DNA from: Psammoneis japonica
Lineage: Eukaryota
Assembly: GCA_008632985.1 (NCBI GenBank)
Contig: QPGO01000039.1
Span: forward strand, 62,001-126,000
Direction: 5' to 3'
DNA: 64,000 nt
In this document: positions 1 to 60,791 of the stretch, piece by piece
How positions within the stretch are numbered: the stretch's first letter is position 1
Layout of the letters: each line of letters opens with the position of its first letter
Program-made: the position numbers and the translations under genes
Notes under the pieces: model-generated
The model's database searches: none
What the model was told of the DNA's origin: nothing
Seen by the model: only the letters and a program-made list of their open reading frames with translations

Positions 1-700
1 AACCAACAAAGTTGTTTGTGATGCAGGTGCAAAAGACAGCAAATGAAAAGTTTTGTTGACAATGATGACAAAGTGCTGTTTTCATGCATGCTGTCACAGC
101 TCTGCACAGGCAACATGGAGAAGCCAAGAGCAACCGCTCACTGTCAGGCATCAGAAATGACACCTTGCAGTCACTGCCTTCAAAGCAACAAACTCCAAAT
201 GCTGTTGACAACACTCCAATGAACAGCTGAGTGCTGGAAAAATTCAAAAGACTGCTTTTGCCATTTTCCAAGATAAAATGTGTGAGTTTTCTGAAATGGA
301 CCCTGGTGCTGACTGCCAGCCACTGTCTCAGTGTTGACCTCACAGTGTGCTCTCATCAAGACTTTGGGAGCAGCATGAGAGCCTTTCAACAGCTCAAGGA
401 CAACAACCAACACAGATGCTAAGAACAAATTACAGCTGCAAATGGCTGGATTTAATTAAAGAAGCACTGGAGCCAGCCGTTGGCTTGGAATGTCACAATT
501 TTTCGTTCTAAGGAGGAGGCGCTCATGAACAACATTGCATTGACCTTGCCCGTCAAGTCAGTGAAGAATGTGCCCACCCTTGTTCACTCAAAGACAGACA
601 GCAACAGGGGAGATGGTACAAAGACAAAAACAAGATTTCCAACACCACCTCACAATGACAAGAATGGCCACAAATCTCATTGAGTCACCATGCAGACAAG
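1..700. mobile_element. Decayed repeat block (CpG/TpA-eroded), family unresolved
   Basis: 0 TpA and 1 CpG in nt 1-240; no coherent ORF; composition returns to normal at about 700-780. Confidence 0.55.
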
Positions 701-959
701 AAGTTAACGGTCGTGACTTAATTTTTCAAATTTCAAATGATGTAAACTAACTACGACATGCCGAGTAATTTGTATTAATATTTAAAACATTAATTCATGT
801 GTGTTCGATGAAAAATTCGCACCAAGAAGGATGAGGGAAAAAAAGAAAAATCACATGATGTACCCTATGTCACTTTCTTCCTATCGTGCACTTGCATGCG
901 CCGCATTCCTTATCCTGTCATTCTGAGAAGCAAAGGAACGAGTCATCTGTATCTTTGTC

Positions 960-6936: not shown

Positions 6937-8299
6937 CCTCCGTAATTTATTATTTGCAAGAATGATTCAGCGGTTTTATCTCAGGCGGCCAAACGACACC
7001 AGATTGATAGTTTAGTGTGCAACCTATATGCGCTACTGGTAAAACTATACTCTAGTAGAGTTGCGTCGTTGGCATCCATCAATAATGTGTTCAATATAAT
7101 GTTGTGGAAATTGGAAATGATGTGGAATGTGGACCGGCGTGTCTGTTGCCTGCTGCCTGCTGCCTGCTGCGGCTCACCGCTCACCGCGCCGTGCGGCACT
7201 TTTTTTTTTTTTTTTGCATGGCTGCCTTGCCTTATCTTCTTTTGTGCGAAGGGTCATTGAGGGGATTTATGAAAAGTCATCATGTGTGTCAGTGAGTGTC
7301 ATAATGTCGAACAAGTGATGTTCACAAAACAGTTGTTGGATCGTGTCAAAAAACAAACGACGTGGCTTGGCAAAGAGACTTTGAAAAAGAGGAGAGCCAT
7401 TAGAAGTGGAGACAACATGAGAGTTCCAGGAAATGCAAGCCAACTCCATGTTCTTCTGGCTGGTGGAGCAAGCTTCTTCTGGCTTCACTCTCTTGTTGAC
7501 AAAGTGGGCGTCACACTGCCAGGCTCCCGCGCTGCCAAAAACAGCCTTTTTTGCCTTTCCAGCTGCTTGGCCTTTTGACCAGCAGCAACAACTGCCATTG
7601 TTGGAGGGGCACCTGGCTTGAGGGGTGCCATGTGTGACCCAGAAATGAAGCCACGTGTGTTTTGAGTCCCTGGCGTGGCTGGCTGAAGAATGTTCTTTGG
7701 AGGGCCCCCCATTGTCGATCTCAAACTTGCCAACTTTTTGTGCTCACTCTTTGGAGTGAATCATCTGGTTCACCAAGAACAACAAGTGGTGTCCATTGAC
7801 ACCCAACAATCTGTTTGGCATGCGCACGATGTTTGGCGTGAAGGCAAAACACAGCAGGTGCAGAGACCAGGGCAAGTGTGGCGAGCAACACAAAAAGCTC
7901 AACAGGGCTTGCTTTTGGTGACATGGACTTGCCATTTTAATGTTCACTTCAAAAAGTCATTTGCACTTGTTGAGTGGTGCACGCCAGCTTGTCAGAAGAT
8001 CATGAAATCATCGACACCTGCACTGTGAGTGGCAGAAGATGCGGGAGGCAACAAGGGAAATGCCGTGACCAGCACGAGGGTTGTGGTGGAAGAGGTGACA
8101 AAAGCCATGCCAAGAGCAAGAAATCCTTCCAACATGAGATGAAATTTCATCCTTCAACCGTGAACAACAATGCACGCAATGCGACACACAAAGACGTCAA
8201 CAGGAGGATCTGCAGATGCACACAAAAGGAACTTGAACAGGGCAAATGCATGACAAGGTCCCTGGAGAACATGAAGTGCCTTGACTTTAAGGCCAAAAA

Positions 8300-9250
8300 G
8301 CCTGTGCTGAGACTGCCAGCAACTGCACCCAAACAAGGGTCAGCCACATGCAGTGCTGACATGCAAACCAACAAGGAGCATGAGGACAAGCAGCTGGAAT
8401 GTGAGCACCATGCCGAGTGCCAGGACTGCCGTGCAAAACTGAAAAGCAGTTCAACAAGAACAGATCAAATGCACTTGCCATGATTGTGAATGGCTGCTGC
8501 ATGAACCACATGAGGAACAGGGTCCCAGGTGACCCAAGCTGTGACAGCACTGGAGATGATCCATTCGAGTCATTGAGACTTGTCCATTCTCTGACACTTG
8601 ATCGCCCAGCCAGAGGTTGACATCCATTCCGTGCATCGACAATGTCTCTGAAGAACACACTGCAGGTCTGGCAACAAGAAAATGGGTCCATTGCAGATTT
8701 CCCATCAAGATTCAAGAACCAGCAAGATTCCACCTGAGAGATGGTCTGGGCAATGAGATGCTTGACAGGTTCACTCAGAACACCAAGGAGCACAAGGAAA
8801 GCAGCAGTGCTGGCAAGCAGGCCAAGCTGAAGAAAACAGCATTTGATGCCTGAACAACCCACCTGTTCATTGAGAACAGTGACAACCATTGCTGCAAGAT
8901 GCTGAAGAAGAGCTTTGTGATGTGCTGCAGTTTGAGAAACAGCATGTGCCTGAAGGACCCCGACAGAGCAATGGATGTCATCTTGCTCAATCATGAGTGG
9001 GATGACAAGCAGAAGCAAGTCAACCTGAAGAACCCTGACTGTCAAGATGATGAGAATGGGAGGGACAAGAATGGCAACAAGACCAAGAGCCAAAGCCACA
9101 CCCAGAAGACCAGCACCAAAGGCAAGATGACACACTCCACTGTTGTGGCAAAGAGGACCACAATTTCCCGGATTGTTGCCCTGACACACAGGATCCACAG
9201 CATGCAGAGAAGGGCCCGGCATCTTTGGAAGGTCTCACTGCTGCAGCGTT
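8300..9250 (+). mobile_element. Ty1/copia (CoDi-type) gag remnant with zinc knuckle
   Basis: EMLDRFTQNTKEH...KLKKTAFDA*TTHLFIENSD...AMDVILLNHEWD and HCCGKEDHNFPDC (about 9135-9180); stops and frameshifts. Confidence 0.7.
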
Positions 9251-11039
9251 GTTCAGAGTTGGAAGATTTGCCTGTCATGATGGATGATGAGGTGGACGGA
9301 GCCACAGGTGAGGATGGGGACACTGCTGCAGCAAGGCAGTCAGTGAGAGTTTTGAGGACCGCAGCGAGTTTGTCAGTCACAGAGGGAGAGATGTCAAGAT
9401 TGGGTCTGGCAACGGTGCGCCCGTGGTGGCCGAGGGTGTTGTCCGAGGGGCAGAAGATGCCTTGAAAGAGTGCAGGTCCTTCTCAACACTTTCTGCAGCC
9501 CGTCAGGCAGCCTCAGAGACCATGTGAACCGTCTTGAGACATGTCTCGTGGTCTTGGATGGAGCTGGTGTGCGCTGTCATTTGTGCATCGACACCATCAC
9601 AGCAGGATTTAAGAGTGTTGGCTGGCTGGTCCTGTGTGATGAGTTTTGTTGCATCTGGAGTCTGGAGGTGCGGGGGTGGAGGAGAGGAAACAACATTTTC
9701 ACAATCGTCAAGGATGCCCGTCATGGTGGCAGCCACAGAAAGACCATTCTTGACAGCATTCTCCATGTCAGCTTTCATGGAATCCAGTGCAGCAAGCAGC
9801 AGATCAAGGTCATCCGTGTGTCACTTGATGTCGCCTTCCACCTGATTTTGGAAATCAGTCCTGGCAGAGCTGGCGAGTTCACCAACAGCATGGGCAGATT
9901 CAGATGAAGTGGATTCCAGCAGTTCAACATCAGACGCAGTGACCACAGTGAGGCGTTGTTCTTCAGTCTGAGACACAGTCTTGAGGCACTGGAGAACAGC
10001 AGCCCTGGCACCCTCAACCAGCGCTTCTGCATCAGACAGGTGAGGGCAAGGTGCTTGTCAAGCCATTGCACAAATTGCTTGTCACCAGCTGCCACTGCAG
10101 TGTCAGCAGCATCTCCTGCAAGAGCAACAGCCTCTTGCTTGGTGGCTTGCAGTTGTCTCTCAACAGATGTTTGGAAGGTGTCCATCACTTGTGCAGCAGC
10201 AACACTGGCCACATCAGCATGAGTCTGTTCAATCACAGACCAAAGAGAAGCAAGTTCTTGGTGGAAGGATGCAACAGTGGCCTGCACCTCTGCAAGAGAG
10301 TCACTGTGCTCTTTGTTCAGTGCTGCAGAGTCCAACAACTGTGTTTGAAACTGCCGGATGAGGTCAGCAGGAGAAACCAGAGGTGAGTGTGGCCAGTTGT
10401 GGTCCAGAGGTGGAGGCAAACGAGGCGGAGGAGAGCGCGCCAATGTGCCAGCAGGCAGAGCAGCAACAGTGGGTGGCGTGGGCGGTGGTTGGGGAGATGC
10501 AACGACAGGGGCATCAGCCAAGGGATCGGTGGCAGTGGATGTGCAGATGCCATCACGGACCGCTGCCATGATGGATGTGCCAACTGATGGAGCAGCTGTG
10601 ATGGGTGGGGCAGTGGCATCCGGCGCTGTTGATGGTGACACCACCACTTGAAGAGATGAGATGTGTTCCCACCAAGACATTGCCATCTTGGAGTGGGTGC
10701 TGTTTGCTTGTGCCATCACAATTCAGTGATCGGGGAGCGGTGGCACACATGAGCTGTTGGTGTCAGCACTTTTGTGTGCGAGAGCACACAAGCAGAGATG
10801 ACACCAAGAGCTGCAGCAACAGCAGTGGATGCAAATGACAATGGCACAAGATTTGTCAGCTTGCGGCAGAGATGTTGCAGCCACAAAAATGAGAAAGAGC
10901 ACGTGTGAAACGGTCTCTTTGTCATTGTCAACGAGGTTGTCAAAGAGTGTTTTTTGAGTGTCGTTGGTCGGCAGAGGGGCCCCGCTTGTGCCAAGCACAA
11001 GTGTTGTGCTCACAACCTGACAAAGATCCCAATCTAACA

Positions 11040-12404
11040 AGTGAGAATGACACACAGCCACTGAGACATGTCAAAGCAGGCAAAAAAATGGCCCAGGCCC
11101 AGGGAGGTGTCAAAGATTTTAAATTCACAGGAAAATGTGGAGACAATCTTCATGATGCTGATTGGACTGCGGGAGTGGAACATGAGGACAACAACAATGA
11201 CTGTGATGACAACAATGAAAATGATGACAAAGAAAGCAAAAACAGCAATGGCAAAGACTGCGTGATGAGATGGACTCAGACAATGAATGCAAAGAAGTCA
11301 ATGACATCCCAGCTGGTGTGAAGTTCAGTCCTGACCAGCACAACAAAGAGACAGAGTCCATTGATGAGAATCCCGACTGTCACAAAGGAGATGATCACAA
11401 AGATGTTGATGGCATGCAAGACAAAAACAGGCTGAACAAAGATGTCAAGGGAGCCAAAGAAAGAACAGAGGAAAAAGCCAGAGCCACAACTGGCAGGACC
11501 ACAAGGTCCAGGAAGTCCTTTGCACAAAGGCACAAGAAGCATGAGAAAATGGCACAGTTTGCAGGAGTGGCTGGTGCTGAAGAAGAGCAAGAAGAGATTG
11601 CTGAAATCAAGCACTGCCATCACTTGCAAACAATGCAGGTCAAAACCAAGAGCATGACATTGAATGCAGTTCTGAATTGGTGATGGCACTGGTGCAGTTT
11701 GTGTGCAAAACAAATGACAGATTCCATTCAACTGGAAAGGGCATTTTGTTTGCCCAACAGTGCCCACCACACAAAGGCCTAAAAGCAGTTGGACAGAAGG
11801 GGCACAATGCCTCCAAGAAGGAGACAGGACAACTCCACAACAGGGTGTGCTTTGCACCAACATCTGTCAAAGACAAGACTCCAAGTGAGAGGGCAAAAAC
11901 CATTTTCCTTGTGGAGAAATGAGATGGTCAGATTGAAGGATGAATGGTGTGCAACAGGAAACTGACCAGAGAGTGGCTGGACAAAGATGAGTCAGCCACC
12001 AGTCCAGTGGCATCATCAGAAGGAATGTTCATGACTGCCATTGTTGATGCTGAGAAAGGATGCAACATCACAAGTGCTGACACACCCAGTGCATTCATTC
12101 AAACTCAGGCTCCAAAAGTTGAGGAAGGAAAGGATTGGATCATGATGAAGATTGCAGGAGCACCAGTTGACATGCTCATCAGCATCAATCCCAACCTTTG
12201 TGGACCATGCATGGTCCTGGAAAAGGGCAAAAGAGTCCTTTGCTCACAAGTGGTTGGAGCAACATGTGGGGCATGTTGGTTGCAGTGCCACTGTGGTGCA
12301 AGCAGCTCTGCAAGAACTTGGAAAAGATTGGGTTTGTGTCAAACCCATGTGACCCATGCATTGCCAATTGTGCTGTCAATGGCAATCAGCACACAGTCAG
12401 ATGA
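11040..12404 (+). mobile_element. Ty1/copia (CoDi-type) pol remnant (post-integrase linker and reverse transcriptase)
   Basis: LHDADWTAGVE; FLVEK*DGQIEG*MVCN; SPVASSEGMFMTAIVDA; ADTPSAFIQ; GMLVAVPLWCK; GFVSNPCDPCIAN...QHTVR. Confidence 0.9.
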
Positions 12405-13929
12405 CTGGCTGGGACAGCACTGGTTGAAGCCTCAGACAGGTGTTGTGCATCCCTCTTCTGCAGAGATCAATTGCCAGAAACTGAAAAGGCAACAGACACA
12501 GAGAGACACTGTGGGCTGCATCCAGCTGGTGGTTGAAGAAACAGAAGATGAGAATGCAATCATTCATCTGATGTGGCAAGAATTAAAGAGCACACTTTGA
12601 CCAAAATGGGTTGAACCACACAAAAGAAGATTTGAATTTGTGGAGGACCTGCACATGTGCAAAGTCACGGGTTGGTCTCCAGAGATTGATGAACACATGT
12701 CTGCCACCACACCAATGATTTCTGCACATGACAACTTTGAAGATCTTGAAGAAGACATTGAGAACAAAGTCAGGTCCTTGCACCTGACTGAGGAATGTTG
12801 GCAGATCATTGGAGGCAATGCCTGCAGGCAATGAGTCCCATTCTGTGCCAGATGGGGAGCATCGCACAATTTCAATGAGGCATTTGATGAAACAACAGGG
12901 GCGGGCTCAGGGGGTGACAACTTGCAGTTGGCCCTGGGTTGTCCCACCTGCAGCATGGGCATGCAAGGGAGTTGCAGCCCCTCAATGAAAAAGAATCATC
13001 AACGAACCTGATGGGATCTGAGGCTGCAGTGGGCTCATTTTCACCACAACATTGAGGTTGCGAAGCTGGGTTTGATGTGCACATGCCACAGAATGGAGTT
13101 CTTAGAAATGTGCAAACACAGAGAGACTCAGCAGTTGGGCTGAACAACCACTTGTTGGTCTGTCAGACAACATCATGAAATGGATTTTTTTTGTGCCTGT
13201 GTCAGGCATTTTGTGGAAGCTGTGGAAAGGTGCACCCACAAGTTTCATCACATGGTCAATTTCTCAGACAAATGACCTTTCTTCAACATGGCAACCAAGA
13301 TGTCAAAAACATTGATGGGACAAATGGTGTCCCAGAAGAGGAAATTGTCAAGTTCCTTGTCCCAAATCATTGGAACACTGGCAACAGCAGCAGGAGTGTG
13401 TGTCAGAGCATCTGGCTCTGTGGGCACCATGTGTGACCCAGAAACAAAGTTGCATTTTTTGAGTCCTGAAATAACATGGTGAGTTGATGACTGTTCTTTG
13501 GAGGATCTTCTCAATTGTTGATTGTGATCTCACCAACTTTTCATGCTCACTTTTTGGAGCGAATCTTCTGGTTTGTCAAGAATGACAAGGGGCATCCGTT
13601 GAAGCCCAACAATCTGTTTGGCCCAGGTGCAATGTTTGACATCAAGGCAAACCATGGCTGACACAGCAACCAGGACAAGTGCAATGAGTGGCACAGGAAG
13701 CTTGCAATGACCCTTTTGGCAACATTGACTTGCCAGCGCTCAACAGCCACATTGCAACAGCACAGAGACAGCATGTCAACGCTGCCTCAGCACACACCCA
13801 AAAAGCCCATCTGTTGCTGGATGGATGCACAGCCATGTGGGAGAGATCCTGTTTGAAGATGCACCTGAGCTCCTTGGCAAGTTCATCATGCTGTGACATG
13901 CTGTGTTGATGCCAACTTGTTTGTTTGCA

Positions 13930-14400
13930 TGCTCTCAGCGGGGGGAATCCATTGCAGGCATCCCCTCTCTTTCTCAACAAGCTCCCAGCTGCCTGATTCT
14001 CCAACAAAAGAAAAACCATCAAGACCAGCTCTCCACAATTTGTGAATCTGAGTTTGTTGCTGCAAGGGCTTGCATGGAGGAACAGATTGTGGACCTGCAT
14101 GCCATGCTGCATCACCTTGGCATCCTGACCTGTGATGCCAGCTGTGTGCTTGGTCATGACAACAAGTCAGCCATGGATGGCATCACCACCCTGCACTCTC
14201 CAAGCTGCGCAAGTGCCACACACTGCCCTCCAGTTCCACCATGCTCACAGGCATTTGCCTCTGGCATTCTTGGGCTCTGCTTTGTTGAAGGCTCCCACAA
14301 CTTTGCCAACATTCTCAGCAAACATTGGGGTTGCTCTTAGATCTGGAGCCTCTTCCATCCCCTCATGTTCTGGAGCTCTGACTCTAAAACCTTTTGTCTG
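13930..14400 (+). mobile_element. Ty1/copia RNase H remnant
   Basis: ESEFVAARACMEEQIVDLHAMLHHLG...DNKS...NFANILSKHWGCS matches copia RNase H (SEFVAAR...LRYLG...DNKS...NPADILSKHWGY). Confidence 0.85.
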
Positions 14401-15479
14401 TCTGATGTCAATGTGGCTCCTTCCAGCAAAATGGAAAGTGACAGGATTCGAGCAGGATTTTGGTTGGGTGTGATTGTTCATGTGCGCTGCATGCATCCAG
14501 GGTTTTGCAAAAACATGTTTGTGTGCTGCGGCAGTTTTGTCACACTTTCACACATTCCAGTTTGGCTCTTGGGCTGCACAGCTCAGTCTGCCAGCAGCCC
14601 CTGCAACAATTTTCACACAGAAACCCATCTTCCATCTGACAGCAGCAAGCAAGGCATTGTTGTTGTTGTTTTCACACCCAGCTCTCCTCTTCAACTCCTG
14701 TCATCACAAGCCAGCAGTTTTTTTTTTTCTTGGAAAGTGGATTGGGTGTGCATTTTGTCTGGTTTGCAAAACATTTTTTGAAACAGACCAACTGCTTCAA
14801 CAATGATGAACAAACAGAGCTGCTGCCTGTCTTCTGTGCACATTTTGTGGGGGGGGGAGATGCCTGGTGCAAAAACAGCAAAAGGAGTGAGGTCACAGGA
14901 CCAGTGCACTCACCACCTCAGTTGTGGACTGGCAAGCACTGCAATGTGTCAAAGAAGATGACAAAGAAGCTTCCCAACTGCAATGGTGTGAGCCCCACCC
15001 ATCAATCTGAGCTGTCTTGAGAGGGTCAGCAGACAACAAAGAGTGATGTGAAATTTTCATTTTTTTCTCAAATCAGTGGGTTCTTTGACAAAAATCTAAG
15101 ATTTTTTGTTGAAGTTTCACACAGAACAAGTCTCTTTGACTTGCTTGTCACATGTGTCAGCCTGGTTGACAAAAAAGCATCTCCTGGATGACCCCTGCAG
15201 TGTGGGAGAAAAGTGTGCAAACCAGCTGGGCTTGAAATGCCAGCGTGTCACAGGCTCAAGTTCAAGAAACAGGCTGGCATGTCGCCTCAACGGAAAAATC
15301 TTTAACATCCATGACTTAGGACAATTTTATGTGTGCTGATTTGCAACCTTTTTCGCGAACATTTGGTCCGTCATCTGTCCATCAGAATGTGGATTTTCGT
15401 GACCCTTCAGGCCTTTTTCACCGTGACACAGCACGGCACATTTTTTGTGCCGTCACGCCGTCGCGATTTTGAGCACAAT

Positions 15480-15573
15480 GGAAGGTGGGGCATCGGTTGC
15501 CGACGATTGCATTGGTCCCTTTCGACACTCTAAAGGCTCGAATGTGTCATCGGCGACCGATGCCCCACCTTCC
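15480..15573. repeat. 27-bp inverted repeat with 40-nt spacer
   Basis: ggaaggtggggcatcggttgccgacga (15480-15506) vs tcatcggcgaccgatgccccaccttcc (15547-15573); both mismatches are CpG/TpG. Confidence 0.85.
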
Positions 15574-17323
15574 TTCATCATGAAAATGCCGTCTCTTTTT
15601 TGCCATGGCCGCACCACGCAAGCGTTGAGCGATCTTGCGAGCGATGACAAGGTGCGCACATCTCTGCATGATTCAGTGCTCGTCACTTGAATTTCCATTT
15701 TTCTCACACCAACATCATCAACCGTCATCGTCGTTTGTGCAGCCATGGCATCCAGCAAGAAAAAGAGCAGCGACACAGGAAAGAAAAAAAGTTGTTGTCC
15801 CATTGAAAAGAGAGTTGACAATGCTCTCATTCTTTTGACAGCACACGTCTTGGTGAGCTTTGATGGGAAATGGCCAAATGCAGGAGACATTCACCGTGTG
15901 CTCCAGGTTGGTGGCATTCCAGGCAGAACAGCCCAAGTGACACACCGGATTCAATCCAGAAGGGATTTGGATCCAAAGGCTTGGTTTCATTTCGCAGAAT
16001 GTCCAACGACAATGAAAGGCACAGCCATTCAGCAAAATTTGAATCTGATCCCGATGCTCCCAAATCTCAAGCCCACACTCAAATTGAATCATTCAGGATT
16101 GACTTGTCGGCATGCTGTGTGGTTTGTGTGATTCCCTTGTTGCATCTGTTGATGCTCACATTGCACAATCTGCCGTGAAGTCATGCAACAGAATGGAACA
16201 ATCTATTTTATGGCAACAGCGATTGCAGCGGTGTCAATTTTTTCAACTGCCATTGCAGTTGGCGACATTGCATCTAGAGTTGCAATTTGCAATGTCATCA
16301 TGTTCTTTGAAAGCATCCTCTTCTTCAGACGACTCAGCTGCTGGCATCCATGCAGTCGTCATGGCAAAGAAACAGCTCTCGCTTTTTCTTCAGTGTTGGA
16401 GGGAGAAAAAAAATCTAAGATTGCACGTAATTTCAACACTGAAACACACGTAGAACAGACAGCAAAAAGACGTGCAGGCCAACCCACATTCGCAAAATGG
16501 GGCTCACGTGGCGGCCCTTCATGCCAGCCTGTTTCTTTTGCTTGAGCCTGTGGCGTGTTGCTCATCCGAGGAAGACCAAGTTTTGTGGCATGCTGATGCT
16601 GTTGTTGTTTTAAAATGGCTGTCATCCATGGCATCCCCACATGTGTGTGCCCTTGCCTGCCACACATGCTTGTCTTTTGTGCCTGTGCCCCGCTGATGCT
16701 GCAAGCTCTGAGGGACACAGAATTTTTTCAGGCGAGGAGAGAGAGAGTCGTGAAGTCACAGAAGCAAGTGCCAAGCTGCACTTGAGAACTTGGCATGTTG
16801 TCAGAGCACTCAGCAAGCAAAAGGTGCTGCACATGCTTTGGCAATGCACAGCCCTGAGACACCCTGCTGGGGCACCTGGTGGAGTGAGAAGCTTTCTGCT
16901 GTTTTTTGACGAGGCAAGATCATCAACAAGAAGTGCACAGGCAGCCGGGGAGAACCAATTTTAGTGATTGGTGTGTGGCCAATTGCAAACATCTGATTTC
17001 CACCCCAAATTTTGCCTCTGCTAGCTAGAAGACTTTGCATCAGTGTAGTTGGTGTGGGCAGCAGCATTTCGTTGAAAGAGTTTGTGGTTACACGTGGAGG
17101 TGCCAGATAGATGGCAAAGGACGCACGGTCAAGCAAGATTCATTCGAAAGATTCTTCCACGAGATTCACGGGAAGATTCGCCACACCACGAGCAAAAATT
17201 TTGATCGGTGGATACTGGCCTGGACTGGACACCACATGTTTGTTGTTGGTTGGACGCTGTGCACTGAAGAGGCACGTAGCACAAATCTTGTGTTCGACCC
17301 AATTGACAATACGAAGCCCAATC

Positions 17324-23913: not shown

Positions 23914-26660
23914 GATGCTGTGTACGGTGTTAACACCCCCTCTTCAGAAGTGAGGTTGATGCGATGCACCGGTGGACCGGTGGAGCAAAAACAACACCAC
24001 AAAGATAAGTCCGTCTGCGCAGTCTGTCAATCAGCGTTTAGTGACGCTCACTAAACAATTTTAATAGCACCCCACATAGTTCGAATTTCTACGTGCAACA
24101 TTCGAGGTTGTTTTCGGCGCGAGAGCTCGCACTCAACAATAACACGTGTTGAAGCACGTCCCGACATTGGCAATGGCAAAAGAGAAAGTTGATACAAGCA
24201 ACGAGATGCTAAATGAAGTCACGCTGTTAATGTATTCATTGAATGTAGTGTATTAATGAGTTTTAGTAGCTACAATCTCTAGACAAGTCGACCGCCAGAT
24301 GAATTCATCATGTTGGTTGCATCTGCCTCGCACTTCGCACGCGGTAGATCACGACAGTCTACTAAATTTTTCCTTAAGATGTGCGCACAACGAGCGCACA
24401 GCAGCGCAATGTCAGCCAGACGACTGTTGTGCATTTTTTGCGATTTGCGCGACAAATTGTCGTCGACGCCGACGATGACGATGACAATTTTCAGACGCTG
24501 ACAGAGGACGACTTTGCAACAGGCACTTGACACATCAATCAATTGTGCTGTGGAGAACACACACATGCAAAGAAAGTCCCCCGGATGAACTCACAATCGT
24601 TCGACAATCGAGTGCATTTTAAACGATCGTCGAAAAACAGAGCTCCTTGTTGGCATGACGTTTTGCTTTCGAACTGAGGTTGCTCCCGGGGACTTTCATG
24701 ACTGAATGCGTTCGTAAACTTGACAAACTGAATGTCTGCAATGACAAAAGACTCTGGGACACGTCGCTGTCATCGCTGTCGTTGCAACAATGCACCACCG
24801 TCACATCGCCTGTTTTTGGCGACGAGGCGCATGGCATGCTGCGCGTTTCTCGTGCAGCAGAAAATCCTGAAAAATCAAATTGTCATGCCTGCACCCCTTT
24901 GTTCTGCGAATGCCTTGATTTGGTTTCCATTTCTTTCCTTGTTGTCTTTTTTTAATCACGGAAATCAGGGGCATGTCAAACAAGGAATTCATCTGTCATG
25001 CGTTTTCACCAAACAATTTCTGTCACCAAATGATTTGCATGGCTGCTGGCGTGTTTGGGGGTTTTGGTGAACACTGGACAGATGCGCAGCAGGCCCCTCT
25101 CAAGTGTGGGGATGGTGCCTGGCATCTTCCAGGTTGATGTTTTGATGTGTGGCACAAATGACCTCAACACCTGCTGTGTGATGAAGCAGCTTGGTTGGGG
25201 GCAGGCCTGTGCCACCTCTGAGTGCCCCTCTTCCTTGCTGCCTTCTTCTGACAAAGTGTGTGCAACAATGTTGTTTTTGCCAAATGGGTTCAAACACTCA
25301 CATCAATGCAGCTTTGTTCACCAGCCATCAAGGAAAGAGGAGCTCTGCATTGGCACAGACAGAGGGTGTGTGCTGGAACTTCTGCAGCCCCATGGCACCT
25401 GGAGATCATCAGAAAATGATGCCCCTTGTGTGCACCACATTTGCCAACAACCCATTTCCTGCCCCCAGCTCATTTGGTCTGATGCTTCCATCTTTCTCAT
25501 GATGAAATTTGTCAGCTGTGCACATGGACAGAATTGGTCAAAACCTTGCAAGGCTCTCAACAATGCATTTCATGGAAGATTCTCTCTTGTTGCTTGTGGC
25601 TGTTGCCCCCCAAGAAAAGCTCCTCTCCACCACACCCCCTGCTGCTGCTCTCTTCCACCCTGGTGTCTTTGTTGGAAACTTTTCTTTCCCAGTGCTCTCT
25701 CCAAACTTCACAGCTGGTGGCTGCATGGTTGCAAACAGCGCATCACAGTGGGTTCTTTCCTGGTGCCCAGCTGCTTTCCACCAGTCTCTTGTGCCAGACA
25801 GCAAGGTCACGCAAAAGATGGCTCCACAAGGATGAAGCTCAGCAGCCGTCAGTGGCTTGTGGTTGCCTGCAACAAAATCTGCTGCACACTGTTCTTGGCA
25901 ATGCAACAGGGCTTGTGTGGCATGGCAAAGCATGCCAGCTGTTGCTTTTTGCTGTGGCAAACAGGATCAAAACTGGCGTTTTGTTGTGCCCCTGCGGCGC
26001 ACTGGCAGGTGGACTTTTTCAGCTGGCACAACTGAAGGAGACGTCCCCAGCCACCCCAACATGGCACACCAGCCACTGCAGGCCCCACCGGTGGATGATG
26101 CAAGAGTTGCAGTGCAGTGGACCCGTCTCTGTCATGCAGATAGCAGAGAGTGTTACAATCTTTGAAGACGTGCCCAAAAAAGCATTGGCAATGCACCAAG
26201 CACTCTCTCATGAGGCAGTTTAGGGGATGTCTCCAGCCAACACAATTTTTATGTGCAAAAGAGTTGTTGAGGCGTCTCTTGCTGCCATGTCATTGGTTGA
26301 ACAATGTCATGGTGGAAAACACAAAGTGCAAGGTCCTTGCCCCCCCCCCCCCCCCCCGCCTCAGAACTCATGAGTGTGTCGATGCTGAAATCACCATGCA
26401 TCACGCACAAACTCCGGACACTCAAACTTCCAAAGCTGATCAAACTTTTAAATCTGCTCCCTCTCTCACAGTCACTGACTCACAAATGAAACTTTGACAC
26501 ATCATCATCACTTGATCAGGGTGGTCAGTTAAAACAAAAGAATGTCCTGCTGCACAACGCATCATGTGTGCATGCCAATGTGCACAGCACGCACCCACCA
26601 GGGCACCATCCATGTCCTAAAAAGTGCCGAGCATGTTGAGCAATTGACAAATGGACAGAG

Positions 26661-26780
26661 AATTGAAATCACTTGCATGCAAGTCATTTCAACTGCAAGT
26701 TGGGTGTGAGTGTTTTCCAACATTTAAAAGCTGAAACAATTCAAAATGACCCCTTCAGAATTCTCTTCTTGTTCTCATCT
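26661..26780 (+). repeat. Dispersed ~100-bp motif, copy 2 (eroded)
   Basis: aattgaaatc...aagtcatttcaa...gtgttttccaacatttaaaag...aattcaaaatgacccct...ttctcttct. Confidence 0.7.
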
Positions 26781-28467
26781 CTCAAAGATGCACGTGTTCA
26801 GTGTGAAACTGACTGGCATGGGTGCTGTGAGCAGTTTGGAGAATTGACAAAGCTTCCGTTGGTGGTTGTTGCTGAAGCATGCAGAATTTGTGCTGAAGTC
26901 CATGCAAAAAAATTCTTGAAAAAGAAGAACAAGCATGCAAACCACAAAGAGTCAACACCAATCATGCTCCACTTAGAAACATTGCTTGACATGCTGAAAA
27001 AGGGTGTGCCATTGGTTGAAATGGCCTGAATGGTCTTGGCAGACCTGGCAGAGCACCAACAGAGAATGGCGACATCAGTGGCATGAGAGCATGAACAGAA
27101 ACACACACAGGAGCTGCTGCACAAGTGGGCAGCTGATGTCAAAAAGTGTTCTTGCTAGACAAGTTGTTCAGCAATGAGAGCACACAAACATTTCTCACAT
27201 GGTCCAAGCAGTGCAGTGGAAATCAAGTTGTCATTGGGAAATGACTTGTGGTGTGTGTTGTGTGCACATGTGCTGGGAGATGTGTTGCATCAATTTGTGA
27301 GGTTTTGCATGCTGGTTTGACCATTGCATTGTGTGTGTTGCTGCTGAGCCAACTTGGTTGTTTGGTCAACAATTGCATGTGACCTGTGTTCGCTCACTCA
27401 GCACACACCTTGCTTGTTTGAACATCATGTGCTTGGCTGCAGTCGTTCGTTGATGGCTGGCACAGTGTCATGATCAACAGGTTGTGTGCTGTCCAGCAAT
27501 CTTTGTGTTGGAGTCTGCACTTGTGAGGAAAGGTGGAAGTGGCATGATCAGTTGCAACTTCATTTTCACCGTGGCTTTGGCTCCAGAGGGTGGAGGAGTC
27601 AAGGTTTTGATGCTCTTGGTTGAGCCAAGGTTCGCTCTTGAGGCTGTTCCAGGTTGTTGCGCCAGCATTGAGGGTCTTGAAGAGGTTTGCTGGGTTCATC
27701 AAAACTGGCGCATGTCCAGTCATGCAGGCAGCTCCGAGTTTAGACTAATGAAAAAAAGAAGAGGAAAAGGAGGAGGGGAAGGAGAGAGCAACATGTTCAA
27801 TGTGCACACATGACGCCCAGACGATCAGTGCTTCTGACGTGCACAGCGCAGTCATCTGCTCTCCAGCTGGCCAGCTGGTCACGGCTCTCCACTCCAGAGC
27901 AAACACTCTAAAGAACAACAACACTGCATGATCCATCTAAATGCATTGTCCACTGGTTCGTTGCTCACAGAAATGCAGAAAAAGCACACACCCACAGCTG
28001 ACTAACTCCACAGTCAACACACAACAGCACACTCCCCAAACATTTTTTCATCACTTTTCTGCAACCAGCTCCACATTGTTCCATCCATTCCCTCTCTAGA
28101 GACCTGACTAGATGCGGAAAGTTCCAGGATCTGATTTCCCCATGTGAGTGAGGAACATCAAAAGACATCTGTCATTTAGAATGTGGGCCTGGAAATGCCA
28201 CTGCAAGCTTTGGCAGCAAACGACATTCACGCTGGAAAATGACGGGCAAAACAAAAATGTGAGTGGAACAACGTGCACAATGACATGGGATCACATGACA
28301 CAGCACACTCACCAGGGCACCTTTTGGAGGTGGAGTTGAGTCACCTCACCAATTTTTGTGCCCCCATGTGCCGTCAGCGGCTCGTGGCGTCCGTGCATTC
28401 AAGAGGAGGCGATGAGCCCACCAACACAAGCCTCAACCTCTCCCCATTTTGCCCTGTGCAAAGCCTG

Positions 28468-29180
28468 GACTCGTTGGTCACTGCCAAGATCTCCCAAAAT
28501 AATGTGGGTGACATTGTGTCTTAGATGATGAAGAGAGTCGATTGCAGAATAGGAAAAAAGGCTCGTCACAGACCAGATGCCTGCACGCATGAACGAGACG
28601 CACAAAAAAAGGCTCGTGAGGTGTGCAAGTTTCGTCAAAACGAGTCCAACCATCAAACAATTCGAACATGCTCACAGGATCACCTTTTTTGGACTGTGAT
28701 GAGACTGTCTGACAATTGCCAACGTCACAAGTGTCCTCCAGGCTCCATCGCATCATTTTGTTCTAACAGCACGCACTTTCCAAAAATTGTGACGGCTGAA
28801 TGCACGACATGCCATGATTGTGTGACTCGTTGGTCGCTGCCAAGATCTCCCAAAACATCATGGGTGACATTGTGTCTTAGATGATGAAGAGAATCGATTG
28901 CAGAACAGGAAAAAAGGCTCGTCATAGACCAGATGCCTGCACGCATGAACGAGACGCACAAAAAAAGGCTCGTGAGGTGTGCAAGTTTCATCAAAACGAG
29001 TCCAACAATCAAACAATTCAAACATGCTCACAGGATCACCTTTTTTGGACTGTGATGAGACTGTCTGACAATTGCCAACATCGCAAGTGTCCTCCAGGCT
29101 CCATCGTGTCGTTTTGTTCTAACAGCGCGCGCTTTCCAAAAATTGTGACGGCTGAATGCACGACATGCCGTGATTGTGTG
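28468..29180 (+). repeat. Tandem duplication, 2 x ~356 bp
   Basis: Units start gactcgttggtc(a/g)ctgccaagatctccc at about 28468 and 28824; duplicated ORFs at 28525 and 28881. Confidence 0.95.
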
Positions 29181-29981
29181 CCGACCAAGCCCCCAAGAAG
29201 GATGTCAAGCACGTCACAAATCCACATTAATGCACACAAAGGGTGCACCAAAGGATGCAGAGTGGGGTGAAGCATGAAGATCCCAAACGGATGCGCTTTG
29301 GCTGCACCAACGACTTGAAAAACATGCCAACATCACAGATGTCTTAATCGACCGCATGAGACGATCAATCCACCTTGCAAGCTGCAACAAAAAACAACAA
29401 TGATCTTCGGCAAACAGGGAAACAAAATAAAATGAGAAAACGCACAAAGAGCTTGCCTTGGCAACGTTGTCGACCATTCAGATGCAACCCGCAGCGCACA
29501 GTGATCGAGGCACGAGTGAGTCGTCGAGTCGATGCACACAACCGTTTGCACCGTGTGTTGCAACCAAAGCCCCCCAGGAAGCCAAGCCAACATGTCAACC
29601 TCTTTGCAACAGCAACAGAAAGAGATCACACATGCAAAATGCATCTGCCCCACGATGTTTGCCATGCCGAGACACATCAAAGTGCAATGTGCATGGCCGT
29701 TTCTTGTGGTGCAATGTGCCAAATCGGGATCATTTGAGTGGAATGAAGGAAATGAAGAGGATTCCCCGTCAGGCGTCCTTGTCAAATTTCTGCCAAACTG
29801 GACCGTTGCTTTCCACTTGTCCTTGTCAAAATGGAGTTGCGTCCTCATCAAATTCTGCACAAGTTCCAGTGCATTTCCCAGTGCAGTGACACCAAAACAC
29901 AAAACACAGCAAAGAAGAGTGCAACAACCAAGCTTGTGCAGCCTCTCCTTTCGTCCCCACTGCACCTCCAAACACCAAAAG

Positions 29982-31372
29982 ATGGAAGAACACCGCAAGT
30001 GCCAGCATTGTTTGAAAGATTTCGATTCGGACAACATGGCGGCAAATGCTCCTGTCTGTGGTTTGGAATGTCCCCACATGCTCTGCCAACTGTGTGTGAT
30101 GAACCTGTGTGTCAGCACCAAACAATCAAGTGACAGCAATGCCAAGAGCATCAAGTGTCCCTTTTGCAACAAGCCCAAATCATTCTGCATCAATCGAGGG
30201 GCCAATGTCTCGTTTTCTGCAGTGTGCCAAAGGCGTGGGAAGACTGTTGAAAGGAATTGTCCATTTGCCAAGAACGCCTGGCCAAGCGACAAAGACCCGA
30301 AGACACTGGTGGCGATGGGTTGGAAGATTTGACGACAAGCTCAGTGCAGGCTGCAAGGGGAGGAGAAGCTGGGGCCGAAACAGAAAACCAAAAAGCCCCA
30401 GAGAGCACCAGCAACGAGCAAGAAGAAATGGAGGATCAAAAGCCAGCAGCAGTGGACACTGCTGCGGCTGCTGACCAAGATGCCCAAGGCGAAAATGGGG
30501 CAGAAGAAAACGGAATTGTGGCTGCAGCTGAAGTGGGAAATGTGGAAAATGCTCCTCCCTTCAACATGGACACCAGCCAACCAGCGTCCAGCAGTGAGGC
30601 AAATGCTCCCAAAAATGGAGCTGCAGCTGAAGTGGAAAACACTGGGGATGTTGCTGCTTCCAATCCCGCCCACCCTTCTTCCAATGAAGCAAACAACCCC
30701 ATTGAAGCTGTTGCCAGTGCAGCTGCAGGTGGTGCTTCCAATCCCAGTCAACAGGAAATTCCAAGCGTCTCCAATCAAAACAGTGCCGCAGCTCATTCTG
30801 TCCAATCTGAGGAGGAACAAGAGGCCTTTCTCCAGGTTGCCATTGCCAATTCCTTGGGAATCCAACAGCAACAAGCTGCTTGTCCAGCCCAGCAACACGA
30901 ACAGAACAGCAACAACAGCGAGGAAGAGGAGGGCGACCGAAAACCTGCAGCAGTGAACAGAGACACCCAAAATGCTCAAGCAGCTGCTGCAGCAAGTGGG
31001 TCTGGGGACACAGAGCACAATCAAATTCAGAACGCAAATGTTTCTGTTCCCAGTGTGGCTCAAATGCCAGATCCAGAGGAGGACACCAATGACAACAAGC
31101 CACCCACTGAAGGAGAGCAAGCCCTGCTTCAGGTGGCCATTGCCAGCTCTCCAGGTGCTCCGGTTGGTGAGGGTGCCAATGAGGACACGATTGCCTTCCA
31201 ACAAGCAACTGCGCTGTCTGCAGGTGTCACTCTGCCAAAAGAACAGCCCTCCATCTATGCCGCTGGGGCTGGCTTGGAGCAGGATCCCCTCCTGATCCAG
31301 GATGACGAGGAGGAACAGACAGAGACAATGCAATTGCAGCAGGTGATTGCGCTGAGTTTGCAGAGCCGTTGA
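29982..31372 (+). pseudogene. RING finger plus four UIM-like motifs (putative E3 ligase), disrupted
   Basis: CQHC...CPHMLCQLC...CPFC; acidic linker; EEEQEAFLQVAIANS, EQALLQVAIASS, AFQQATALS, MQLQQVIALSLQ; frame change and TGA near 30190-30250. Confidence 0.7.
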
Positions 31373-33095: not shown

Positions 33096-33205
33096 AACTG
33101 AAAGCACATGAGTGAAAGTCATTTCAATGACAAGCATGTTTTCAAACATTTGAAAAGCAAAAGAATTCAAAATGACCTCTTTGGATTTCTCTTCTCATTC
33201 TCTCG
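33096..33205 (+). repeat. Dispersed ~100-bp motif, copy 3 (eroded)
   Basis: aactgaaagcacatgagtgaaagtcatttcaa...gttttcaaacatttgaaaag...gaattcaaaatgacc. Confidence 0.75.
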
Positions 33206-38870: not shown

Positions 38871-38989
38871 TTGGAACCATGCAGATTGAGAACTTGCAGG
38901 CTTTAGTTTGGCAGCTTTGTAATCATCAGAAGCACAATTTTCCATTGGATGCAGTGCAGTTTAATCAGGCAATGCTGGCAGAGGCTCAT

Positions 38990-40600: not shown

Positions 40601-40917
40601 ATGGAGGAAGCTTGCACCCCTTTTCACACCACTGGGGGTGACCTGGGGTGCAACTTCAAAAGGATGCAACGCAGCAGCTGAAGAAGGCAGTGACAAAAGG
40701 TTGGGAGCCATTGGCAGCATGGGGAAGGATGGCAGCTCCTGTTGTGGGTCAAGCAAGCTGAAAGATGTCAAGAACTCCAACCATCAAGTGGAAGTGACAG
40801 AGCACACAGTGGCAAATTGAGTCATCATTGATGAACCAGCACTTGCTTGGTGGGTGCCCCCATGTTTCAAGGATGCCTGGAATTGGATCATGTCAAAAGT
40901 CAAGTCAAAGCATCAGA

Positions 40918-41829: not shown

Positions 41830-41833
41830 CAGA

Positions 41834-60400: not shown

Positions 60401-60791
60401 TTTCATTGGAGACACTTGGAGGATTGGTTGTGATCACGCTTTTTCCAATTGGCCAGCATCCAAGCCCTGTTGGACATAAATTGTGAAGGTTGCAAACTTG
60501 TCCTTTGCAGCAAGCAAAGAAGCACAGCTTCCTGGAAATGATTCCAATAATTCACATTTGGCGGCAACGGCATGGGTCTGCTGGAATTGGCACTCGAGCT
60601 CGATAAACGTGTGAGAGATGACCTCAGTTGTGGGAAACTCAGAGAATGGTTCGAGGGCTGGCCATTGGCTGGAAGAGATCGATTCTCTCGGAAAGACAGT
60701 GGACAGTGAGAAGAGAACAGTTGACACACAGCTAAGAATAAGTGTGTCGGAAACAGCTTTTTAAGTTTTTAGGGATTCAGCATTGTCCAGC

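Follow-up and report, generated by a model that had tools for sequence, protein, structure and literature searches.

TpA-depleted blocks in the window

Segmentation of the window, that is, the whole 64-kb stretch of DNA that was analysed, with a two-state HMM separated normal DNA from 11 sharply bounded TpA/CpG-depleted blocks, which total 31,424 bp or 49% of its length. The ratios of observed to expected counts (o/e) in these blocks are 0.00-0.14 for TA, 0.12-0.38 for CG and about 1.9 for CA/TG, while the genes show 0.5 for TA and 1.2 for CA/TG. The GC content of 0.49 is retained despite TpA erasure, and TAA (116) and TAG (66) are almost gone from the six frames, against 1574 TGA. The features are the following, delimited by the HMM unless another source is named and with the strand given where a feature has one.

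1..703: depleted block, truncated by the window start (TA o/e 0.14, CG o/e 0.14)
7364..15281: depleted block of 7.9 kb, described in detail below (TA o/e 0.03, CG o/e 0.19)
7609..7934, + strand: direct repeat copy A, LTR-like, pairing with 13408-13735
13408..13735, + strand: direct repeat copy B, LTR-like, pairing with 7609-7934
15282..15736: TpA-depleted stretch with normal CpG (TA o/e 0.14, CG o/e 1.23)
15737..17022: depleted block (TA o/e 0.09, CG o/e 0.38)
24967..28371: depleted block (TA o/e 0.08, CG o/e 0.21; 15 of 18 residual TpA are YTAR)
28372..29554: high-copy repeat, TpA-depleted with normal CpG (TA o/e 0.13, CG o/e 0.87)
29520-30329, + strand: RING-like relic frame (Pfam RING_XB3-XBAT31, E=9.5e-05, under the curated cut-off)
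29555..34372: depleted block with relic open frames in its left part
30251-31369, + strand: acidic relic frame from translation, with UIM-like motifs as read by eye
36683..40929: depleted block, its right side broken by a young insertion (TA o/e 0.05, CG o/e 0.12)
40918..41829: unmutated MITE-like insertion of 912 bp, with 21-bp perfect TIRs and the 4-bp target duplication CAGA
41819..44815: depleted block, earlier labelled copia (TA o/e 0.05, CG o/e 0.12)
46806..48711: depleted block
54859..55483: depleted block with zero TpA
58433..60540: depleted block
62311..63721: depleted block

Between 7300 and 15100 there are 14 TpA where 494 are expected from base composition, and 95 CpG where 471 are expected. 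Twelve of the 14 TpA are YTAR, namely TTAG at 7401, 13103 and 14338, TTAA at 7938, 8288, 9610, 11120 and 12584, and CTAA at 11035, 11780, 14385 and 15097; the other two are ATAA at 7302 and 13472. This full enumeration coincides site by site with the list given in a sequence-only reading of the same DNA. The block 7364..15281 itself contains 13 TpA, 12 of them YTAR, and 92 CpG, with CA/TG at about twice expectation. A six-frame read-through Pfam scan of 7935-13407 returned 0 families, and so did the six read-through frames of 41819..44815 at E<=0.1. In the latter block 7 of 10 TpA are YTAR, so that the flank bias previously described at 41.8-43.4 kb is borne out, but not the copia identity assigned to it. 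Because the Pfam scans recognised no transposon or viral protein domain in any block, copy number is the sole ground for calling this DNA foreign.

Two TpA-depleted segments retain normal CpG. The residual TpA of 15282..15736 are TTAA, TTAG, TTAT and CTAA, and those of 28372..29554 are six YTAR and four ATAR, with none having a 3' pyrimidine. The latter segment, which includes a two-copy tandem array at 28468-29180 (unit about 356 bp, copies about 94% alike), has a depth of 1000-2000 vs about 33 for single-copy DNA. Among 59 TpA-depleted 500-bp windows, five have normal CpG, and no CpG-depleted 500-bp window with normal TpA occurs within the 64-kb window; the two losses are correlated (Spearman rho 0.76). 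Thus, CpG loss accompanies TpA loss, never occurs alone, and lags behind it. The MITE-like insertion, whose TIRs are exact reverse complements, has a TA o/e of 0.78, a CG o/e of 1.15 and a GC content of 0.39. It is unmutated in spite of a depth of 2600-5000 vs about 33, or about 80-150 times single copy, which implies that copy number alone is no trigger or that the process is inactive now.

Flanking bases of the surviving TpA

The 108 residual TpA of the 11 blocks comprise 76 YTAR, 18 YTAY, 12 RTAR and 2 RTAY, while the 1185 TpA of normal DNA comprise 192, 282, 359 and 352, respectively (Fisher odds ratio for YTAR 12.3, p=8.9e-32). If survivors had the flanks that Y-R steps in general have within the blocks, 23% would be Y..R, and if their two flanks were combined at random from the block frequencies, 32%; the observed figure is 70% (p=2e-25 and p=3e-16, respectively). 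YTAR makes up at least half of the TpA in all 10 blocks that hold any, and, free of segmentation, its share by rising local TpA density is 0.82, 0.64, 0.53, 0.16 and 0.16. We consider the observation real and far beyond chance, given the 14 TpA against 494 expected and the odds ratio of 12 with p=9e-32. The sequence-only reading, which held that survivors are almost all YTAR, was right for 7300-15100, and the same class predominates in the blocks as a whole.

With the gene-rich DNA of the window as a stand-in for ancestral block composition, survival relative to normal DNA is about 37% for YTAR, 3-6% for YTAY and RTAR, and 0.6% for RTAY. The classes are multiplicative, with a per-strand survival of 0.075 for TAY and 0.62 for TAR. 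All 16 NTAN counts are fitted by a four-parameter model in which each strand mutates on its own, at a rate determined by the base that follows the A (deviance 12.5 on 12 df, fit p=0.40); the purine/pyrimidine form of this model is far better than no context (likelihood-ratio chi2=170, p=7e-39). TAY disappears about 5.4 times as fast as TAR (kY/kR = 5.4), and with T, C, G or A next to the adenine on its 3' side the exposure is 2.7, 2.5, 0.7 and 0.3, respectively. The +2 base also contributes: TAAA, TAAG and TAGA survive at 0.53-0.61, and TAAC, TAGC and TAGG at 0.13-0.18 (p=1e-4). TAY is hence an approximately five-fold preference and no strict requirement. The earlier proposal of a TAY target motif stands in that form, as does its premise that YTAR is the sole class without TAY on either strand: survival obeys the per-strand rule, and the NTAN classes are unequally depleted in blocks vs normal DNA, TAY being lost faster. 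A flank-dependent, TpA-erasing mutation process very probably made the pattern.

Direction of change and candidate mechanism

The two LTR-like copies share 70% identity over 334 bp by self-blastn, and their alignment contains 91 differences in 322 columns, including 66 transitions and 17 TG<->CA dinucleotide swaps. Over 24967-44815, to which 1358 contigs of run X1 align, the variant places are 613 transitions and 208 transversions, and the differences include adjacent CA->TG pairs. Since copies of one repeat differ mainly by TG<->CA swaps, the change took place in the DNA where it lies and affected both strands. The products are balanced (TG 3570 vs CA 3576), and the strands are uncoordinated in the order of TG and CA (runs test z=-0.72, autocorrelation about 0.02).

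We infer a context-specific mutating enzyme as the cause. The blocks would be old repeated or foreign DNA in the diatom nuclear genome, subjected to local in-place hypermutation of TpA to TpG or CpA, in which each strand would mutate without regard to the other and the base following the adenine would govern the rate. The target would be T-A-Y, read on the opposite strand as R-T-A -> R-C-A, and TpA would persist where both strands read T-A-R, best of all T-A-R-A. As the most likely agent we tentatively propose an adenine deaminase active on polynucleotides, with TadA/ADAT-like neighbour preference, generating inosine in DNA that would be copied as G. The change of CpG to TpG/CpA would follow a separate and slower path, for which 5-methylcytosine deamination in silenced DNA is the simplest candidate. 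Hypermutated old repeats with a TAY target, a putative deaminase and separate CpG decay make the best explanation overall, one toward which we lean modestly.

The direction of change has to be read from the products, since a mirror motif with the determinant two bases 5' of the mutated A (R-T-A -> R-T-G / T-A-Y -> C-A-Y) predicts the same YTAR survivors and opposite products. The observed TGY/RCA share of TG/CA is 0.560; on the premise that the blocks once had normal-DNA composition, 0.559 is predicted under TAY->TGY and 0.472 under the mirror. The indices I1 and I2 are 0.560 and 0.463, vs 0.559/0.447 and 0.472/0.534, respectively. Book-keeping in which lost TpA and CpG are moved into eight product classes, again with gene-rich DNA standing in for the ancestral blocks, gives a chi2 of 43 for TAY->TGY / RTA->RCA, 398 for the mirror and 111 for no context; the class ratio shifts toward TAY->TGY, opposite to the mirror, in 10 of 11 blocks. 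Forward simulation from normal DNA gives r=0.77, 0.65 and 0.72 in the same order, the mirror being the worst fit. In the transition matrices AT is down, GC is up and TT is unchanged, the fall of AT and rise of GC being as TAY->TGY / RTA->RCA predicts. Both TpA losses polarised by the window copy vs the majority of copies among the 40 of 821 variant places listed (28681 TTAC->TCAC, 28701 ATAA->ATGA) are nevertheless of mirror type, and the unpolarised differences at 31057 and 38117 belong to that type too. We consider TAY->TGY the likely direction and the mirror improbable. Under TAY->TGY, the losses at 28681 and 28701 are slow-path events, and the fast path is not seen among the polarised differences. 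Unpolarised copy differences include at least three RTAR/RCAR and at least two RTAR/RTGR among those listed. The earlier assignment of the mutation to the A of TAY, becoming G, thus gains from a better product fit than the mirror, although the A of T-A-Y and the T of R-T-A are inseparable by sequence and all counts fit both. The T could be attacked by a TET/JBP-type oxidase yielding 5-hydroxymethyl- or 5-formyl-uracil on silenced repeats, occasionally copied as C. 5-Formyluracil mispairs with G, but 5-hydroxymethyluracil (5hmU) itself pairs with A, and we know of no case in which 5hmU is mutagenic at such a scale. According to the available text of PMC11572971, transposable elements of dinoflagellates are marked and silenced by 5hmU, which earlier work cited there found to replace thymine preferentially at TA and TC; here, TC is no target, the T-to-C transition frequency falling only from 0.266 to 0.220, a small fall explained by CpG decay, and our literature search found no such modification on record for diatoms. 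Thymine attack is, in our judgement, unlikely.

Apart from an attack on T-A-Y, error-prone patch repair would join TpA and CpG loss in the same blocks (rho 0.76), if methylated or deaminated CpG recruited a polymerase-eta-like enzyme miscopying T at WA, in the manner of antibody hypermutation in its A:T phase. WA is the hotspot of polymerase eta, yet AA is not depleted (A-to-A transition frequency 0.311 vs 0.320), and complete TpA loss with normal CpG in five 500-bp windows, with CpG loss never alone, is the reverse of the required order. Moreover, de novo mutations in Bigelowiella natans (see below) are nearly exclusive to TpA, with CpG absent from the available text, and we regard patch repair as very improbable. 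ADAR-like A-to-I hyperediting of transposon transcripts, later fixed by reverse transcription, would share the preference for 5' U and a repeat-derived duplex RNA substrate (PMC11334849, available text). However, the optimum given there is 5'-UAG-3', and a TAG site was the best edited in DNA/RNA hybrids (94%; PMC5389660), while here TAG resists change more than most contexts do; conversion is equal on both strands without strand runs, and copies diverged after duplication, which leaves this route hardly credible. Scarcely more tenable is the absence of any flank targeting, with the YTAR excess reflecting original repeat composition or TpA that arose later through ordinary mutation. At the variant places listed, the window TpA at 38905, 38921, 29120 and 41707 (the last in the unmutated MITE) are minority states among copies, so some survivors may be re-created TpA, and some TpA are probably new. 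Nevertheless, TpA reborn from TG/CA would carry the 23% Y..R noted above, only 12 of 65 TpA are YTAR in the MITE-like insertion, which is young and AT-rich (HMM segment 40930-41818), and differential removal is needed, even with some re-creation, to account for the fit to 16 cells and for the growing YTAR share as TpA become more isolated.

Comparison with known systems

We found one publication on TpA-only hypermutation, a 2026 preprint on the rhizarian B. natans (Mettrop et al., bioRxiv 10.64898/2026.01.13.699255). As far as its available text goes, de novo TpA->TpG/CpA changes were measured there in mutation-accumulation lines, and the agent proposed is an adenine deaminase homologous to ADAT2. 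Integrated viral DNA in B. natans resembles our blocks in that only TpA->TpG/CpA occurs, on both strands and in local foreign or transposon-like regions, with TpA-depleted, CpA- and TpG-enriched clusters as the long-term footprint. The host there is a rhizarian and here a diatom; depletion there is partial, with Rho(TpA) 0.45 in a hypermutable giant-virus (NCLDV) region vs o/e 0.00-0.14 here, and 124 depleted clusters are reported in the genome, whereas here blocks make up 49% of the window. The words 'CpG', 'context', 'flanking' and 'trinucleotide' are all absent from the main text as available, which suggests that the TAY>TAR rule and the coupled CpG loss are unreported there.

RIP in ascomycete fungi is alike in its local, near-saturating transitions in repeats, its dinucleotide preference and the fact that it leaves blocks beyond recognition by similarity searches. 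In contrast, RIP turns CpA into TpA, raising TpA and AT content and making stop codons (PMC6714961 and PMC7882544, available text), while TpA is erased here and an element of about 80-150x single-copy depth stays unmutated. Deamination of 5-methylcytosine in methylated repeats would give the CpG->TpG/CpA change of the same blocks (CG o/e 0.12-0.38), but it accounts for the CpG loss alone, which lags TpA loss here. Dinoflagellate 5hmU, a modification of TpA (and TpC) enriched on and silencing repeats, shares the motif if read as R-T-A, but takes TpC too, and our literature search found no diatom report. ADAR hyperediting is likewise A-to-G, with a 5' U/T preference and repeat-derived nucleic acid as substrate; unlike here, where TAG is protected and both DNA strands change in place, it has a UAG optimum and acts on RNA or RNA/DNA hybrids. 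UACG(A) is the context in which RNA is edited by TadA and TadA* (PMC8052359, available text), and among TadA-derived DNA editors the preference is YAC for ABE3.1 and YAY>YAR for ABE8e-YA (PMC12528748, available text). In both, the edited A is preceded by a pyrimidine (U/T) and a 3' pyrimidine is favoured, and the TAY>TAR order agrees with them (UACG; YAY over YAR), as the parallel with TadA drawn earlier had suggested. However, TadA is a bacterial enzyme of tRNA, and the editors are laboratory variants whose substrate is the single-stranded DNA of a Cas9 R-loop; here CA accumulates unconsumed, from which it follows that the 5' base must be T and not any pyrimidine.

Depleted blocks and mutation of DNA in place

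A two-state HMM of dinucleotide transitions divides the window into a mosaic of normal DNA and 11 depleted blocks, the latter summing to 31,424 bp or 49% of the window. The blocks have an observed/expected ratio (o/e) of 0.00-0.14 for TA, 0.12-0.38 for CG and about 1.9 for CA/TG, against about 0.5, 1.0 and 1.2, respectively, in normal DNA, and their GC content is 0.49 versus 0.47. Block edges are sharp, and the genes between blocks are spared. Among the NpA steps compared in the HMM transitions TpA alone is lost, CA builds up and AA stays level, and book-keeping shows that the gain of TG and CA is accounted for by lost TpA and CpG. At 7200-7216, about 150 bp left of the edge of the depleted block in the 7300-15100 region, there are at least 16 consecutive T. 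It was also seen that normal segments such as 704-7363 and 17023-24966 are low in TpA even in genes (o/e about 0.5) and that YTAR, at 16%, is the least common class there; avoidance of in-frame stops explains part of this low TpA.

The pattern is one of mutation of DNA in place. Two direct-repeat copies, possibly the LTRs of one element, lie 5.8 kb apart and are 70% alike:

7609-7934, direct repeat, left copy
13408-13735, direct repeat, right copy

They differ at 91 places, 66 of which are transitions, and at 17 sites TG in one copy faces CA in the other, as independent resolution of ancestral TpA or CpG would give. A single public sequencing run, of DNA, is listed as containing the stretch (run X1), and none of RNA; in run X1, 1358 contigs match 24967-44815 at 80% likeness, with 613 transitions and 208 transversions relative to the window, and several of these differences are adjacent C>T and A>G changes, the window having CA and the contigs TG. 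Depth in this run is about 33 over single-copy genes; most blocks reach 40-270, and 27.6-30.3 kb reaches 1000-2000. Taken with the contig matches, this depth indicates that the blocks are repeated DNA. The strands are equally affected (3570 TG vs 3576 CA), and the blocks have neither strand-coordinated conversion clusters of the kind left by APOBEC or by single rounds of RIP (runs test z=-0.72, autocorrelation about 0.02) nor regional strand skew (p=0.08). Equal strands without coordination rule out the editing of one RNA strand and favour many independent events. Selection against TA and CG words and GC-biased gene conversion were both rejected as causes, because TG in one copy stands where another has CA, and GC is nearly constant.

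Flanks of the residual TpA and direction of change

The 7300-15100 region holds 14 TpA (three TTAG, five TTAA, four CTAA and two ATAA) where 494 are expected from base composition. In a full listing, all 14 fall at the positions reported by the sequence-only reading, which had taken the near restriction of survivors to YTAR as the mark of a TAY target. Over all blocks the 108 residual TpA comprise 76 YTAR, 18 YTAY, 12 RTAR and 2 RTAY, whereas the 1185 of normal DNA comprise 192, 282, 359 and 352 (Fisher odds ratio for YTAR 12.3, p=9e-32), and the excess is present block by block. Two internal nulls are rejected: taken over every pyrimidine-purine step of the blocks, the flanks that re-created TpA would inherit are Y..R in 23% (p=2e-25), and multiplying the flank frequencies of the blocks themselves gives 32% (p=3e-16). 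Moreover, when all TpA of the window are ranked, free of any segmentation, by the count of other TpA within 250 bp, the YTAR share is 0.82, 0.64, 0.53, 0.16 and 0.16 as neighbouring TpA rise. A young AT-rich insertion (HMM segment 40930-41818) has YTAR at 12 of its 65 TpA, and therefore the AT-rich repeats of this genome were not YTAR-rich at the outset.

These counts were fitted with a flank model in which loss of the A on one strand is independent of the other strand and the 3' base determines the rate, starting from the composition of normal DNA.

Exposure to loss by the base 3' of A (95% interval)
T: 2.69 (2.30-3.29)
C: 2.50 (2.08-3.09)
G: 0.71 (0.49-0.99)
A: 0.32 (0.13-0.54)

With four parameters the model fits all 16 NTAN counts (deviance 12.5, 12 df, p=0.40). 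The NTAN classes, counted within the window in blocks versus normal DNA, are unequally depleted, as a TAY target would require, and a purine/pyrimidine version of the model beats the no-context model (chi2=170, p=7e-39) with a rate ratio kY/kR of 5.4. TAY is a strong preference and not an absolute requirement, as about 38% of TAR half-sites are also lost by the flank model. The rule extends one base beyond the 3' neighbour of A: among YTAR, 0.53-0.61 of the normal frequency remains for the half-sites TAAA, TAAG and TAGA, against 0.13-0.18 for TAAC, TAGC and TAGG (difference p=1e-4). In the raw logo of survivors T stands at -2 in 60 of 108 and A at +2 in 64 of 108. The safest context is thus T-A-R-A, TAY is lost about five times as fast as TAR, and the strands are hit independently. 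Four TpA of the window are the minority state among copies, namely 38905 TTAG, 38921 GTAA, 29120 CTAA and 41707 TTAT, the last within the young insertion. Part of the survivors are therefore probably re-created TpA, in which case the flank rule describes differential removal at steady state and the inference is unchanged.

The survivors alone fail to separate the change of TAY to TGY, or RTA to RCA on the opposite strand (H1, the direction proposed in the sequence-only reading), from its mirror, TAY to CAY or RTA to RTG (H2); the products do separate them. Observed CpG losses (half to each product) and TpA losses were moved into the products, and we scored the share of TG/CA reading TGY or RCA (I1) and the share reading RTG or CAY (I2). 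The direction tests, like those of survival, assume that the blocks originally resembled the gene-rich normal DNA.

Gain of product tetramers in blocks over normal DNA, per kb
YTGY (H1 product): +10.5
RCAR (H1 product): +18.2
YCAY (H2 product): +4.0
RTGR (H2 product): +8.4

Product shares, observed and predicted, with chi2 over 8 product classes
Normal DNA: I1 0.510, I2 0.472
Observed in blocks: I1 0.560, I2 0.463
H1 predicted: I1 0.559, I2 0.447, chi2 43
No context predicted: I1 0.516, I2 0.491, chi2 111
H2 predicted: I1 0.472, I2 0.534, chi2 398

The shift in the H1 direction is seen in 10 of the 11 blocks (ratio 1.30-1.78 vs 0.96-1.33 in normal segments; Mann-Whitney p=0.002). The dinucleotides concur, with AT down, GC up, and TT and AA unchanged, and forward simulation from normal DNA reproduces the tetramer changes with r=0.77 under H1, 0.72 without context and 0.65 under H2. 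Per-tetramer product shares are too noisy to use, ancestral composition not being fixed. The comparison with contig copies covers 40 of the 821 variant places. Relative to the majority of copies, the window has lost TpA at 28681 (TTAC to TCAC) and 28701 (ATAA to ATGA), both slow-path events under H1; among unpolarised differences, RTAR is paired with RCAR three times (H1-type) and with RTGR twice. The direct evidence from copies is thin and does not favour H1, and a TAY target with A-to-G change stands as the best fit on the strength of the flank model and the product book-keeping.

CpG loss and the content of the blocks

Among 59 TpA-depleted windows of 500 bp, CpG is strongly depleted in 41, intermediate in 13 and normal in 5, and no CpG-depleted 500-bp window with normal TpA was found within the window. 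Since CpG is never depleted alone, TpA loss must be earlier or faster, and CpG loss a separate, slower process. Two stretches of the HMM suggest that TpA loss comes before CpG loss:

15282-15736, TpA-depleted, CpG normal
28372-29554, TpA-depleted, CpG normal

The simplest account of the CpG deficit seen in the blocks (CG o/e 0.12-0.38) would be deamination of 5-methylcytosine in silenced DNA. Two high-copy repeats were also noted:

28468-29180, tandem pair of a high-copy family, unit about 356 bp, about 94% alike, TpA-depleted with normal CpG
40918-41829, MITE-like element of 912 bp with perfect 21-bp terminal inverted repeats, inside a fully mutated block

Four of the residual TpA in the tandem pair are ATAR, and no residual TpA there is followed by a pyrimidine, which hints that the two strands were hit unequally in this family. 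The MITE-like element is flanked by a CAGA target duplication (40914-40917 and 41830-41833), has a depth of 2600-5000 in run X1, about 80-150 times single copy, and is rich in AT (GC 0.39); its TpA and CpG are at normal levels. This means that the element arrived after the latest bout of mutation or that a high copy number is not by itself the trigger, in contrast to fungal RIP.

The blocks have 247 stop-to-stop frames that are 70 aa or longer. Pfam searches of these yielded no domain of a transposon or virus and three weak matches below cut-off (RING-like, FAD_binding_7 and MMS22L_C), and scanning 41819-44815 and 7935-13407 in six read-through frames gave no Pfam family. The sequence-only reading had called 41.8-43.4 kb a copia element; this label was not confirmed, as 41819-44815 gave no family at E<=0.1 in six read-through frames and no reverse transcriptase, integrase or gag domain, stop-to-stop frames included. 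No homologue was found for the frame at 29336-30340 (minus strand), nor viral-contig relatives for two block frames. At about 9130-9180 (plus strand), some 1.2 kb inside the LTR-like repeat 7609-7934, a read-through frame resembles by eye a decayed CX2CX4HX4C zinc knuckle (gag-like), without Pfam support.

The blocks contain five open frames of at least 300 aa where their composition predicts 0.37 (no more than 2 in any of 100 simulations), one of the five being RING-like, and such frames have the look of coding-sequence relics. Cys, His and Trp are abundant in them, and Tyr is at 0-0.5%. Six-frame stops in the blocks number 116 TAA, 66 TAG and 1574 TGA; with TAA and TAG nearly erased, the blocks carry long open frames free of tyrosine. 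By the logic of the code, new in-frame stops can arise only through CGA to TGA, and hence genes are crippled by missense (Tyr to Cys or His) and their frames stay open. Two such frames, Tyr-free or nearly so and in different reading frames of the same block, are probably relics of a repeat-borne gene:

29520-30329, plus strand, RING-finger-like frame (Pfam E=9.5e-05, below cut-off)
30251-31369, plus strand, acidic frame with three UIM-like motifs (by eye)

Depleted blocks escape domain searches, gene callers may mistake their long tyrosine-free frames for genes, and repeat annotation in diatoms may be badly underestimated.

The genes of normal DNA, recognised in long open frames, are of ordinary eukaryotic kinds: ATG9, a diacylglycerol-kinase-like gene, a class-C GPCR, an AIR-synthase-fold gene, an FkbM-type methyltransferase and an F-box/WD40 gene. 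No deaminase domain is found among their domains, and no Rfam RNA family in the window. The AIR-synthase-fold frame is selenide, water dikinase, and among its best 120 hits the matches that name an organism are all from diatoms, at 69-73% identity (Thalass.., Entomoneis, Cylindrotheca twice, Seminavis, a Bacillariaceae MAG, Nitzschia and Stephanocyclus); the sole match of ATG9 with a visible organism name is also a diatom. We regard the host as a diatom. At 14 metagenome loci with ATG9 relatives (28-76% identity, best segment) no depleted blocks were found; one 500-bp window in a contig of 68% GC passed the filter. This result carries little weight, as the organisms are distant.

Comparison with known systems and candidate agents

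A literature search for TpA-erasing hypermutation of foreign DNA gave a single relevant study, a 2026 preprint on the chlorarachniophyte Bigelowiella natans (Mettrop et al., bioRxiv 10.64898/2026.01.13.699255). It reports that in mutation-accumulation lines A:T to G:C changes are elevated about 1000-fold, nearly all at TpA, that the targets are an integrated giant virus and virophage, that the genome has 124 clusters depleted in TpA and enriched in CpA and TpG, and that an ADAT2 homologue is the candidate agent. The hypermutable regions yielded 231 de novo mutations, and CpG, flanks, context and trinucleotides do not appear in its main text. A 2025 preprint on diatom transposable elements makes no mention of dinucleotides, deamination or methylation.

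Any candidate enzyme has to reproduce the flank rule, whose value as a quantitative fingerprint is that it makes the hunt for the enzyme directly testable, and we infer an enzymatic step. Editing of the ADAR type would be strand-specific, from A to G. The optimum of ADAR is 5'-UAG-3' (PMC11334849), and TAG was also the best-edited site in DNA/RNA hybrids (PMC5389660). ADAR does not fit as the agent because TAG is protected here (0.71 vs 2.5-2.7 for TAC and TAT), the strands are equal and strand runs are absent. The rule likewise disfavours errors of the polymerase-eta type. This polymerase errs at WA motifs, but AA is untouched in the blocks and TpA loss occurs without CpG loss, so that such an error does not fit. 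What the rule favours is either a specificity like that of TadA or a thymine modifier reading R-T-A. The latter may be the agent, and in dinoflagellates 5hmU is reported on transposable elements with a preference for TA and TC (PMC11572971). TadA and TadA* edit RNA at UACG(A) (PMC8052359), and on DNA ABE3.1 prefers YAC and ABE8e-YA prefers YAY over YAR (PMC12528748). Two marks of a TadA/ADAT-like signature occur in the window, a T 5' of the target A, as only TpA is consumed, and a preferred 3' pyrimidine (T about equal to C, well above G, then A; kY/kR 5.4), the latter supported by the direction of the products. By this analogy, TadA-family enzymes would fit as the agent.

We would go further only tentatively. 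It is possible, though we think it rather unlikely, that diatoms own a dedicated T-A-Y-specific DNA adenine deaminase, derived from TadA/ADAT or another deaminase fold, which serves as a genome-defence mutator and is shared with Rhizaria. If so, invading DNA would be disabled through missense and not through stop codons, a "reverse RIP", and would be marked before erosion by cytosine methylation sets in. Being common to Rhizaria, the enzyme would be ancient within the SAR (stramenopile-alveolate-rhizarian) group, and laboratory adenine base editors would have in it a counterpart from nature.

Fungal RIP has the opposite effect, since it changes C to T at CpA and raises TpA and AT in duplicated DNA, whereas in the window TpA is erased and frames are left open. 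With B. natans the window shares both the conversion of TpA to TpG or CpA and the confinement to discrete regions with neighbouring genes spared. Relative to the literature found, the ranking of T-A-Y above T-A-R(-A) and the CpG loss that follows TpA loss are new, and we predict that the majority of the 231 de novo mutations of B. natans lie at TAY. The process is the B. natans kind of genome-defence-like hypermutation in another lineage, a diatom as opposed to a rhizarian, and it is far more advanced here, being saturated, spread over half of 64 kb and followed by loss of CpG.
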